64,000 nt of DNA, from the IMG/VR virus record IMGVR_UViG_3300022562_002256, positions 1 through 64,000 of that record; one strand, 5' to 3'. Within the stretch, counting starts at the first letter, position 1. Each line of letters opens with the position of its first letter. Made by a program: the position numbers and the translations under genes. Shown piece by piece: positions 1,783-47,747 of this stretch. The stretch comes from a virus. Under the pieces are notes generated by a model. It was given only the letters and a program-made list of their open reading frames with translations, was not told the DNA's origin and did no database searches.

Positions 1783-1851
1783 GAGCCATTCGTCTAGGTA
1801 GGAGGACCAGCCAAGAATGGACTGAGCCGGGTGCGAGTCCCGGATGGCTCA
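1783..1851 (+). ncRNA. tRNA-like RNA lacking an anticodon loop
   Basis: 7-bp acceptor GAGCCAT/ATGGCTC, D-arm GTCT-AGGTAGGA-GGAC, T-arm CCGGG-TGCGAGT-CCCGG; anticodon arm CAGCCA-AGAA-TGGACTG has a 4-nt loop. Confidence 0.7.
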
Positions 1852-1963: not shown

Positions 1964-2022
1964 CGGGGCAGCAAGGACAGCACGGGTCATGCCGCGCGCG
2001 GGGTGCGATACCCCGTCCCCGA
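1964..2022 (+). ncRNA. degenerate tRNA-like RNA
   Basis: T-arm CGGGG-TGCGATA-CCCCG, 5-bp acceptor CGGGG/CCCCG, weak D and anticodon arms. Confidence 0.35.
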
Positions 2023-2163: not shown

Positions 2164-2228
2164 GGGTCCGTAGCTTAACGGCAGAGTCCGCGACGGCGGC
2201 GGTGCCGGTTCAATTCCGGCCGGATCCA
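2164..2228 (+). ncRNA. 65-nt tRNA-Ala-like RNA lacking an anticodon loop
   Basis: Acceptor GGGTCCG/CGGATCC with G3-U70 and A73, D-arm GCTT-AACGGCA-GAGT, T-arm GCCGG-TTCAATT-CCGGC; anticodon arm reduced to CCGC-GACG-GCGG. Confidence 0.75.
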
Positions 2229-9033: not shown

Positions 9034-9398
9034 CTGACTTGACTATCCACGGCGCGACGCGGCTCGCGGGACTGCCAATCGACCAGGACGCCCGGTCTCT
9101 GGTCGCCGCAATAACGCAGAGCGTCCACAGCGGTGGCGACGACGCGGACGGCGTGTTTCTGATCTACACCCACGTGGACGCTCTCTTGAGTCGCGGGGCG
9201 TTCGGCGAGGTCGACTGCGCGCTCGACCTTATCGAGGTTTACGCGCTGCCGACGGTGTACCTCCTCGCGCTGCTGTCCATAACGGAACCGGCGCGCGACA
9301 AGCTGACAAGCCGAGCCGCGTTCGCGCGCAAGGTGCGATCGTGCATCGCCAAGACCGAGCCGGGGCAAGTCGACGACTTGCTGTACGGGATCGAGTAG
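9030..9398 (+). CDS. hypothetical protein
   Basis: ATGA overlap with upstream ORF. Confidence 0.6.
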   Translation: MTDLTIHGATRLAGLPIDQDARSLVAAITQSVHSGGDDADGVFLIYTHVDALLSRGAFGEVDCALDLIEVYALPTVYLLALLSITEPARDKLTSRAAFARKVRSCIAKTEPGQVDDLLYGIE

Positions 9399-30406: not shown

Positions 30407-31015
30407 TCACGTGCCGCACACACGTCGAATGGTAACCATCGGTTGCGCTCCCGCCACAGGCGCCTCCAGCTTGCACTTGCGGCACGTCATCGCCGCCCCT
30501 TCGGTCTCGCGGGGGCCTGGCATCCCACACCCCGCGCACGCGCCGATCCAAAACGCACCCCGCCCGCCCACGCATGGGATCGGCTCGACCTCCAACACAG
30601 CGCCGAGCCGGAGGCCATGCTCGCCGGGGACCGCCCACGGGTCACGTGGCGCGGGCCCGTTCGCGACCACGCCCACGAGCTCGGCCAGCGCGACCACATG
30701 GCCGGCGCGAGCGATGGCATCGCGTAGGGTCCACCTTTCGGGACCAGTCCACCGCGCGCCAGTCACGATGAAAGCGTCGCGGTGCGCGGCGATGGCATCC
30801 GAAAGGTCGGCGACCTTGCTTGCCGTCAACGTGAGCCACCCCCGCCAGCCCCGAAGCCGCCCGGCGACGCTCGGGGCTCGGTTCTCGATCCGCTTGCCGG
30901 CCCACAGGATGAGCCACCACCACGGTGGTAGCAGCGTGAGAGCTCGCTGGGGTAGCGGCACCGCCGGCGACTCGCCGCGGGCCAATGCGGCGGTGATGGT
31001 GGCCATGTCGATCAT
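30407..31015 (-). CDS. ASCH domain protein
   Basis: RALTLLPPWWWLILWAGKRIENR...RGWLTLTAS...PIPCVGGRGAFW. Confidence 0.8.
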   Translation of the reverse strand: MIDMATITAALARGESPAVPLPQRALTLLPPWWWLILWAGKRIENRAPSVAGRLRGWRGWLTLTASKVADLSDAIAAHRDAFIVTGARWTGPERWTLRDAIARAGHVVALAELVGVVANGPAPRDPWAVPGEHGLRLGAVLEVEPIPCVGGRGAFWIGACAGCGMPGPRETEGAAMTCRKCKLEAPVAGAQPMVTIRRVCGT

Positions 31016-32055
31016 CGGGGCCTCCCTGGCATTTCGTCCCACGTGCGGCCGTCTAGCAGCCGCCCGGCAGCCTTCTTGCCGACGTCATAGAGAACGACCT
31101 CATCATCACTTTCCCGCGGAAGCACCCCTAGCCGCCATACCCCGCTGCGGCTGAGGCTTCCCCATCGCCCCGGGGGACAGGGTAGCGCCGTCTGGTCCCG
31201 GGGCACGTAGCGACCCCATTGTTTGAACAGAAAGGGCACCCCCGCGGCCTGACACTGATCCCTGACACCACGAACCCAATCGGGGTGCATCGGCCGCCCG
31301 TGTCGCCCGCTCTCGCCGCCCACGATAACCCAGTCGAGAGGCGCCGCCGCCTGCCCGGTGTGCAGGTGCTCCGAAATGTCGCCTGGGTCCTCGAGCAGCG
31401 GCTCCATGCTCAGATATCGCACCCAGGCCGGGATCGACCGGAGCGCCGCGATTCGGGGGATGCCATGTCGCCTGTCCTCCACAGTGGTTCCTACCCACAC
31501 GTTTGGTAGCGGCCACGGCGTCGCGAGAAGCTCGGGGGTGATCTGGCGGAGCAGCGGGTGTTGGCACCGGCGCTGCGCTTCGACCAGGCACCGCGCCGCC
31601 GGCGACATGCCCCGCCCGGCGTTGGCGTCGGCCGCGCTCTGGGTCAGCCAGTCGAACCACTGCACGAGCCGGTCCGCGCGCTTGGTGAGCACTTGGAAGG
31701 TATGCCACCAGGCCGTAAGCATGATCCCCCACACGGCAGCGATGTACTCGTCGCTCACGCCCTCACCGTAAATGTCGCTCATGGAGCAGACGAAGATCGT
31801 GCGCGCACGAGTCCACCGGAGCGGCTGGTCGAGCACCGCCGGCACCTCGCGGAAGTCGCCAGTCCACACTCGCAACTTGCGACCACCCGCGAACCCGGGG
31901 CGGGTCAATCCGGCGTAGCTCGCCTGCCCCATCGCCTCGAGCCGCGCGGTCATCTCCTCGGCGTAGCAGTTGGCACACCCCGGTGACACCGGTTGGCAGC
32001 CGTGGACGGGGTTCCACGTGGCCTCTGTCCACTCGATCGTGCTGTTGTCACCCAT
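31012..32055 (-). CDS. phage Gp37Gp68 / DUF5131 family protein
   Basis: STIEWTEATWNPVHGCQPVSPGCANCYAE...IFVCSMSD...QVLTKR...LDWVIVGGESG...PFLFKQWG. Confidence 0.95.
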   Translation of the reverse strand: MGDNSTIEWTEATWNPVHGCQPVSPGCANCYAEEMTARLEAMGQASYAGLTRPGFAGGRKLRVWTGDFREVPAVLDQPLRWTRARTIFVCSMSDIYGEGVSDEYIAAVWGIMLTAWWHTFQVLTKRADRLVQWFDWLTQSAADANAGRGMSPAARCLVEAQRRCQHPLLRQITPELLATPWPLPNVWVGTTVEDRRHGIPRIAALRSIPAWVRYLSMEPLLEDPGDISEHLHTGQAAAPLDWVIVGGESGRHGRPMHPDWVRGVRDQCQAAGVPFLFKQWGRYVPRDQTALPCPPGRWGSLSRSGVWRLGVLPRESDDEVVLYDVGKKAAGRLLDGRTWDEMPGRPR

Positions 32056-32509
32056 CGCTGCAGCCGCCCCCTCGCCTTGCTTCATCCACAATCTTGCGCG
32101 CCGCCTCCAGGATTGTGGTAACTCGCATTCCCGGCCAAGCTGTACGAAGAGGACACTCTGGCGGGTTCAGCGACGGGATGTCCCCGAGCTGGATCGACCG
32201 TTCCTTTCCCGTTGTGGTGTCGGTGTACTTGTATGACGCAAAACGGATGAGCGCGAAGTCAACGTGGAGAAAAAACAGGGGCGTGCCAGCGCTGAGGATG
32301 GCGGACGCGTCGCGCTCACGTGCCGCCGACGCCAGGAAGTGCGCAGACACCAGCGCCACGGCGACATCGGCCCGTCGTTCTACGTCGGTGATGATATCTA
32401 CCGGGATGTCGCTGCCTTGCACTACATCAGCGACCGCGCGGCTCACGACCGCCGCCACGTCGCTGTCCTGTTCCGCCCAACACATGAGGACCCTACGCCT
32501 GGTGGTCAA
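32048..32509 (-). CDS. TIR-like domain protein (degenerate)
   Basis: VLMCWAEQD...ADVAVALVSAHFLAS...IPSLNPPECPL; GGAAGGAG SD before TTG. Confidence 0.6.
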   Translation of the reverse strand: MTTRRRVLMCWAEQDSDVAAVVSRAVADVVQGSDIPVDIITDVERRADVAVALVSAHFLASAARERDASAILSAGTPLFFLHVDFALIRFASYKYTDTTTGKERSIQLGDIPSLNPPECPLRTAWPGMRVTTILEAARKIVDEARRGGGCSDG

Positions 32510-32529
32510 GATTTGTGCTCCTTCCGTAG

Positions 32530-32651
32530 TGGACGCGGCGGGATTCGAACCCGCAATAGCCTCTGTTCAGTTACGCGATGGTGAGTCGCGCAGCCGGAGG
32601 CACCGCGGTTTCTAGCCGCAGCGGCTTTGCCCTTCTAGCCATCTCACGCCC
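32530..32651 (-). tRNA. atypical tRNA: anticodon AGA (Ser), Ala-type acceptor (G3-U70, A73), 49-nt variable arm, no encoded CCA
   Basis: GGGCGTG/CGCGTCC acceptor, GGCT/AGCC D-stem, TGCGG-CTAGAAA-CCGCG, GCGGG-TTCGAAT-CCCGC. Confidence 0.8.
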
Positions 32652-32664
32652 GTTTCGCACCTCA

Positions 32665-32680
32665 TGCATCATTCGTGCCA
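32665..32680 (-). promoter_or_regulatory. sigma54-type promoter of the atypical tRNA
   Basis: TGGCACGAATGATGCA; conserved C is 15 nt from tRNA G1. Confidence 0.75.
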
Positions 32681-32874
32681 ACGGACTCAGTGGCATCATC
32701 GGGTGGAGCGCAGTCCAACACAAGGCTCGTTCCTGTCTCGCTCAGGTGCTCGACCACCGCGGTCATTGCCTCGCTGGCAACCACCGCCCACCGATCGTCG
32801 GCGGTGCGGCACGCGAGCTCGATGCACGGCGCCCAGGATGGCGTCACCGATGGGGCCGTAGTAGTTCGTGGCAG

Positions 32875-47664: not shown

Positions 47665-47747
47665 GGAGGGTTGCCCGAGTGGTCAAAGGGAGCAGATTGT
47701 AAATCTGCCGGCGAAAGCCTTCGGTGGTTCGAGTCCACCACCCCCCA
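47665..47747 (+). tRNA. tRNA-Tyr (GTA), no encoded CCA
   Basis: GCAGA-TTGTAAA-TCTGC anticodon arm, class II variable arm, GGTGG-TTCGAGT-CCACC; A3-C70 mismatch. Confidence 0.92.

Follow-up and report, generated by a model that had tools for sequence, protein, structure and literature searches.

A 122-nt phage RNA combining an alanine-type tRNA acceptor, a serine-type loop and a long variable arm

A phage genome assembled complete from marine sediment (198 kb, 66% G+C, with terminal repeats) encodes a 122-nt tRNA-like RNA, in which the acceptor marks of an alanine tRNA are joined to a loop of the serine type and a variable arm about twice as long as normal. Tentatively, we regard this RNA as an alanine-chargeable tRNA mimic, decoding poorly or not at all, that serves as a decoy for host tRNA-binding proteins. 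No description of its combination of features was found in the literature searched, and the architecture appears new; mismatched-identity tRNAs and tRNA mimics are kinds already known.

The gene lies in the window analysed here, the first 64 kb of the genome, and Table 1 gives its parts and the neighbouring features. The phage encodes a portal, head protease, major head protein, tail sheath and terminase. Its capsid relatives (32-62% identity) are mostly short contigs, and the proteins flanking the RNA gene were singletons in the first search, so that this is a phage with few sampled relatives.

Table 1. Features of the 122-nt RNA gene, its transcript and the other tRNA-shaped RNAs of the phage (window positions).
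Feature	Position	Strand	Remarks
Sigma54-type (-24/-12) promoter motif	32665..32680	-	G1 13 nt beyond motif
tRNA-like RNA gene, G1 to A73, 122 nt	32530..32651	-	G1 = 32651, A73 = 32530; read from sequence and fold
Acceptor stem, 5' strand	32645..32651	-	G3 = 32649
Connector, 4 nt, non-canonical, starts with A8	32641..32644	-	Layout as in the 5' end of tmRNA-type RNA
D arm, 4-5-bp stem, 10-nt loop, G18 G19 G20	32623..32640	-	Pair probability 0.8-0.85
Anticodon-like arm, 6-7-bp stem, serine-type loop	32602..32622	-	Pair probability about 0.49
Variable region, interrupted hairpin (32601-32559), then 4 unpaired bases	32555..32601	-	Pair probability 0.91-1.0
Canonical T arm	32538..32554	-	5 G-C pairs, canonical loop; pair probability about 0.49
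Acceptor 3' strand and discriminator A73	32530..32537	-	U70 = 32533
Shine-Dalgarno (32525-32518) and TIR-fold gene, 153 aa, TTG start 32509	32048..32525	-	Relatives, ESM Atlas
DUF5131 gene	31012..32055	-	Overlaps TIR stop
Third tRNA-shaped RNA	1783..1851	+	Variant T loop; no anticodon loop, no G3-U70
Second tRNA mimic, G3-U70/A73	2164..2228	+	Anticodon arm cut to 4 bp and tetraloop; 41 bits as tRNA
tRNA-Tyr (GUA)	47665..47747	+	Only ordinary tRNA of the phage; A3-C70 mismatch; no encoded CCA

Architecture and class tests

Read on the minus strand, the sequence gives the 122-nt 7/5 cloverleaf with a perfect T arm and a CT-AGA-AA loop that the original prediction had described, and the minimum free energy fold is this cloverleaf (-54.7 kcal/mol, z = -2.13, with 7 of 200 shuffles equally good). 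The G3-U70 pair and A73 can be read directly in the acceptor, whose seven pairs also include U6-G67 and, at 4-69, a C-G rather than a G-C. A73 is followed by CUA (32529-32527), not CCA. The loop CU-AGA-AA occupies 32615-32609, with AGA at 32613-32611 (C32 U33, A34, A36 A37 A38). The predicted variable-arm hairpin of about 15 bp is likewise present as three helices (5+3+7 bp), bulged after 5 bp; the length first given for the arm, 49 nt, stands if the anticodon stem is counted as 5 bp and becomes 48 nt if it is counted as 6 bp.

Ensemble folding gives the acceptor and variable-arm pairs a probability near 1, and the anticodon and T stems only about 0.49. A rival fold, in which positions 44-48 pair with 97-101, accounts for about 50% of the ensemble and disrupts the anticodon and T arms, although the folding program ignores modifications and tertiary contacts, both of which would favour the cloverleaf. 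All 38 predicted pairs are Watson-Crick or G-U, six being G-U. A T arm with a 7-bp acceptor was found at two sites in the genome, this one and 2164-2228, versus 0.02 in shuffles. The 8-mer at RNA positions 12-19 recurs in the loop region (P = 0.115), a weak hint that the anticodon loop region may stem from an internal duplication.

Many canonical tRNA features are present: the 7-bp acceptor, a 5-bp T stem with canonical loop, G18G19, and a 7-nt loop with U33 and R37. U8, the 2-nt connector and the 5-bp anticodon stem are not. U8 was found in 465 of 524 tRNAs of the comparison loci, where this RNA has A8, and the longest serine, leucine or tyrosine tRNA among 590 measures 93 nt; no sampled tRNA combines an A8 and a connector of 4 nt with an anticodon stem of 6-7 bp and an arm of 48 nt. 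The Rfam tRNA model (RF00005) scores the RNA at 16.2 bits versus a gathering score of 29, and the best Rfam match is tmRNA (RF00023), at 26 bits versus 47. ARAGORN, which had been suggested as a check, makes no call on it even at relaxed score; its sole call in the phage is the tRNA-Tyr. With the arm shortened, ARAGORN calls a tRNA only on a shifted acceptor, and the native acceptor is used only if the connector is also cut to 2 nt. The arm is therefore not an intron hiding an ordinary tRNA, a possibility that the original prediction had raised against itself and that we reject; the predicted fold has no bulge-helix-bulge, and no RtcB gene was found in the complete phage genome.

The RNA fails the defining tests of canonical tRNAs, allo-tRNAs, tmRNAs and RNA-repair mimics alike, and resembles each in part. 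With bacterial class II tRNA-Ser it shares the CU-nGA-AA loop and a long arm, and it differs in A73 for G73, in G3-U70, in its bulged arm followed by four unpaired bases, and in length (122 nt versus at most 93 nt in our sample). The allo-tRNAs and irregular tRNAs of Mukai et al. 2017 (PMC5389517) also have a long variable arm, an extended anticodon stem and an anticodon that mismatches their identity; some members with G3-U70 accept alanine, and there are inactive members associated with mobile or toxin-antitoxin loci. Allo-tRNAs are defined by an 8/4 or 9/3 acceptor branch (PMC5389517), whereas the branch here is 7/5, as the original prediction had distinguished it, with a 4-5-bp D stem and 10-nt loop, an arm about twice as long and the A8 connector; the tRNA-Sec-like long D stem with tetraloop of the allo-tRNAs is absent.

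The tRNA-ProX of Streptomyces and Kitasatospora (PMC10404621) similarly carries an A34 anticodon on a body of another identity, and A34 is found in the anticodon of each of the three tRNA-ProX mistranslators known (PMC10404621). In tRNA-ProX the identity is that of proline, the gene adjoins ProRSx and mistranslation has been demonstrated, whereas the phage RNA has alanine marks, is much larger, has no synthetase nearby and is known as sequence only. YrlA and b7a-tRNA (bioRxiv 10.1101/312249) are also tRNA-shaped non-coding RNAs inside operons, those of RNA repair; the phage RNA is not permuted as YrlA is, and a search of the complete genome for Ro60/TROVE and Band-7 genes found none, as was the case for RtcB. 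G3-U70, A73, A8, the early GG and the T arm are shared with the tRNA-like domain of tmRNA (RF00023). A D stem and an anticodon-like arm set it apart from tmRNA, and none of the tmRNA traits sought (a long P2 helix, a pseudoknot series, a GGAC link before the T arm, a tag frame) was found in it.

Serine identity resides in the variable arm and G73. Charging by SerRS is unlikely given A73 and the bulged arm; a V-stem bulge, at a position different from the one here, blocked SerRS in an engineered allo-tRNA chassis (PMC7590224). Alanine identity was the original proposal and finds support in the bacterial identity set, which includes G2-C71, G3-U70, G4-C69, G20 and A73 (PMC9976931): A73, G2-C71, G3-U70 and G20 are present, the last depending on the D-loop numbering chosen, and G4-C69 is missing, C4-G69 standing in its place. 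LeuRS recognizes A73 together with the tertiary core and is indifferent to the anticodon (PMC9976931), and with A73 and the long arm present it is a possible second charging enzyme. CU-nGA-AA is the common loop form among the sampled serine tRNAs, and the phage RNA has it with A34. Since ordinary-looking phage tRNA-Ser(AGA) genes occur in two comparison loci (L008, L074), the AGA anticodon alone is rare and not unique. In a further locus (L001, 3552-3627) a gene of virus Rctr197k is annotated as tRNA-Ser yet has a CAG (Leu) anticodon.

Promoter, downstream genes and conservation

The sigma54-type motif, exact in its spacing, does precede the RNA. The placement first given for it, 15 nt upstream of G1, holds when counted from the -12 C; the end of the motif lies 13 nt before G1, which is the commonest distance from motif to start codon in this genome. 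The promoter is the RNA's own only in the sense that one of more than 50 phage promoters genome-wide precedes it; it is not gene-specific. The genome has 51 exact copies of the motif, 23 of them followed by an ATG 12-13 nt on, and 21 sites fall in the window (1187 to 57501) versus 0.16 expected. The genes behind it are usually near-leaderless, and judging from sigma54 geometry the transcript of the RNA would carry a leader of about three bases before G1. A search of the phage turned up neither a sigma54 gene nor one for an activator. The two best long relatives (contigs of 172 kb and 118 kb) were examined across 10 kb around the capsid gene, and the motif is absent from the capsid region of the nearest (L283).

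The RNA is the first element of a promoter-RNA-TIR-DUF5131 run, in which the Shine-Dalgarno sequence begins 4 nt and the TIR start codon 20 nt after A73. No terminator was found in the run, so DUF5131 is probably on the same transcript as TIR. The 153-aa protein was assigned a TIR fold from the ESM Atlas (TM 0.84) and from relatives with TIR_2; a single-sequence AlphaFold model was poor (pLDDT 45) and was left out of this call. The phage TIR stands alone, has a shortened N-terminal half and carries Asp at a position where its relatives carry Glu, and it may possibly be an inactive TIR decoy. Its relatives are neighbours of PNP_UDP_1 domains or fusions with them, or have PhdYeFM antitoxin genes on both sides. 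The protein had no match in 301 myxobacterial genomes.

The sole relative that covers the locus comes from one sequencing run, X3, as two short contigs at a depth of 3.6 that omit the D and anticodon arms of the RNA. They match 32644-32827 with one difference and 32529-32597 with three; the only one listed, A90G at 32562, leaves a U-G pair provided that the partner base, which lies just beyond the covered piece, is the same. The X3 sequence diverges right after C74, which marks the 3' boundary of the RNA. The RNA parts are kept at 96-99% and the neighbouring TIR piece at 90% identity, which suggests that retention of the RNA does not depend on the next gene. Together, the 38 valid pairs and the retention in X3 of the promoter and the covered RNA parts suggest a maintained, free-standing gene.

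The search for homologues that the original prediction had called for returned none with the same interior, in scans that were limited by pattern or seed, so that no match found does not equal absence. These comprised IMG/VR scans aimed at the RNA or at its TIR neighbour (for one of these, among the matches listed), a JGI metagenome scan, a GTDB pattern scan, and BLASTN against phages and plasmids. An RNA-based model run on 151 genomes, the 5'-end pattern in 401 genomes, a sample of the myxobacterial phylum, and the tmRNA model, applied to 34 viral records (mostly fragments) whose capsid genes are related, also gave nothing with the same interior, and none was listed as a holder of the 122-nt RNA among the sequencing runs. 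As for an antisense partner, the longest complement to the arm in the genome is no longer than for shuffled arms.

Sister mimics and look-alike RNAs

Besides the 122-nt RNA the phage has two tRNA mimics without anticodon loops (Table 1), of which the one at 2164-2228 has no encoded CCA. A weak tRNA-shaped RNA without an anticodon loop lies clustered with them at 1964-2022 (+).

The best match to the RNA-based model, at 36 bits, is a 107-nt G3-U70/A73 RNA of an unrelated low-G+C phage (L128, IMGVR_UViG_3300005239_000048, 9147-9253, -), whose interior forms a single long helix and which lacks an anticodon arm. It is identical to the 122-nt RNA at 17 of 19 bases of the 5' end, about half of which are forced by the search pattern, and at 24 of 28 bases of the 3' end; 5' identity elsewhere is at most 11 of 19 in the 590 tRNAs and 6-12 in tmRNAs. 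This RNA has a tmRNA-like 5' end, a possible pseudoknot and no room for a tag frame, and is missed by the Rfam gathering score. In another phage (L124, IMGVR_UViG_3300025683_000618, 866-945, +) an 80-nt minimal tmRNA domain scores 62 bits to RF00023; it has no mRNA domain and lies upstream of terminase genes.

Plasmids hold comparable RNAs. Eleftheria terrae plasmid NZ_CP106953.1 (L266, 2299-2529, +) encodes, some 20 nt ahead of rtcB, a 228-nt G3-U70/A73/CCA RNA that has a loop of 18 nt at the anticodon position, a giant variable domain and a D arm similar to that of the phage RNA; this D-arm likeness could not be extended, and we treat it as resemblance only, not kinship. Nonomuraea plasmid NZ_CP107854.1 (L265, 2413-2529, +) encodes a G3-U70/A73 RNA with a large D-loop insert and no anticodon arm. 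A 12-kb locus (L109) has two long G3-U70/A73 RNAs, of 96 and 117 nt, and these, like the Nonomuraea RNA, lie inside tRNA arrays. Long G3-U70/A73 RNAs without an anticodon are found in four phage or plasmid loci (L124, L132, L265, L266). What the look-alikes share is an acceptor and T arm of the alanine type around a free interior; this suggests that function lies more in the charged end or the elbow than in the anticodon.

In Escherichia coli phages vB_EcoS_CEB_EC3a and BEK6 (Drexlerviridae; L287 and L288, 1132-1233, +) an unannotated tRNA of class II shape, about 100 nt long, directly follows tRNA-Arg(UCU); it has C1-G72, A73 and CCA, its anticodon is UAU and its variable arm is long.

Possible functions of the 122-nt RNA

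A decoy could arise as follows. Transcription would start a few bases before G1, from the promoter type used throughout the genome, with the RNA as the first element of its transcript. Host nucleases would free the RNA, and the host CCA enzyme would swap its CUA end for CCA, as would also be needed for the tRNA-Tyr and the 2164 mimic. By established rules host AlaRS, recognizing G3-U70, A73 and G20, should then charge it, and EF-Tu would be bound by its G-C-rich T stem. The A8 connector, the longer anticodon stem, the 48-nt arm and the rival fold would make it a poor A-site substrate, and the serine-type loop and long rigid arm might act as bait or scaffold, for instance for anticodon nucleases or tRNA-sensing defence proteins. 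The arm is a candidate protein-binding or anti-defence module.

The original prediction offered two functions, a non-decoding mimic and a missense tRNA. Of these two candidates the former is the better supported: we prefer it because the core departs from tRNA geometry, in length, at position 8 and in the two edits that ARAGORN needs, and because the phage keeps other mimics without anticodons, one with G3-U70/A73. The L128 RNA, the best model match, has the same acceptor marks and no anticodon arm, as do other RNAs in phage and plasmid loci, and large RNA inserts in tRNA variable loops usually reduce translational activity (PMC7590224). The intact pairing and the X3 relative suggest that the gene is maintained and free-standing. 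Against this, the loop is a textbook serine loop, dispensable for an acceptor-only mimic; long-arm allo-tRNAs with G3-U70 insert alanine in E. coli (PMC5389517); small aptamers at the tip of the variable arm are tolerated (PMC7590224); and the conservation evidence consists of two short contigs lacking the D and anticodon arms, with no homologue sharing the interior among the scans.

A missense tRNA is possible but doubtful. Charged with alanine, it would read UCU, with which an unmodified A34 pairs mainly, and alanine at serine codons would tune the host or phage proteome, at low cost since UCU is rare (2.4 per 1000 phage codons). The perfect serine-type loop, the A34 mistranslators and the alanine-inserting allo-tRNAs count in favour of this reading, and the fully G-C T stem and the tRNA-Ser(AGA) genes of other phages are consistent with it. 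Its weak points are a combination of core features unseen in sampled tRNAs, an anticodon arm formed in only about half of the ensemble, the lack of a dedicated synthetase nearby, unlike tRNA-ProX, and the repeated 8-mer, which weakly suggests a duplicated loop. Codon usage does not decide the question: in a rough ORF set UCU makes up 7.4% of UCN, against 5.8-14% in other four-codon boxes, and is neither specially avoided nor favoured. In a more specific form, which we consider unlikely, the RNA with its tmRNA-like 5' end and 48-nt arm would receive alanine from host AlaRS, enter the ribosome and deliberately recode UCU from serine to alanine during infection, with the arm as a protein-binding control switch. 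It is improbable that the RNA is a cis-acting, tRNA-shaped leader of the TIR-DUF5131 operon, at which cuts by host RNase P and 3' nucleases would determine where the mRNA begins, how stable it is or how it is translated. Its position between promoter and Shine-Dalgarno sequence would suit a leader, as would the lack of a detected terminator and the prediction that longer transcripts lose the cloverleaf and bury the Shine-Dalgarno sequence (equilibrium folds of long transcripts being unreliable), but a cut signal requires only an acceptor and T arm, and the RNA and TIR are not a fixed pair, because X3 carries a different sequence after C74 and two TIR relatives with DNA (L285, L286) give no match to the RNA model. 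A reduced tmRNA, keeping the tRNA-like domain without the mRNA domain, binding SmpB and competing with ribosome rescue, strikes us as very improbable. The best Rfam match is to tmRNA, and the 5' end (A8, GG at 12-13, then the CUAGA motif) has the tmRNA layout, shared with L128, together with G3-U70 and A73; the score is nevertheless far under gathering, where the true minimal domain of L124 scores 62 bits, and the interior has the foreign arms and lacks the tmRNA elements noted above. We give least credence to a decaying or chance-chimeric tRNA pseudogene without current function. The absence of an interior homologue from the IMG/VR, JGI metagenome, GTDB, phage and plasmid sets at the sensitivity used would fit decay, as would the six G-U pairs, the bistable fold and the A3-C70 mismatch in the phage's tRNA-Tyr; however, the 38 pairs contain no mismatch, the promoter is intact at its usual distance, the relative keeps the RNA better than the TIR piece, and a phage with singleton flanking proteins has few sampled relatives in which a homologue could be seen.

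The weight of the finding is limited in that the RNA is a singleton without covariation support; the phage itself offers three different tRNA mimics for comparison. If the RNA decodes, it would be a virus-encoded sense-codon mistranslator, and it would show that the ribosome accepts a variable arm of natural origin about twice as long as usual. This would be of direct use for tRNA engineering, where the aptamer tags put on tRNAs have had to be small up to now. Should the RNA not decode, it would be a new architecture in a recurring, unexplained class of alanine-marked phage and plasmid tRNA mimics.
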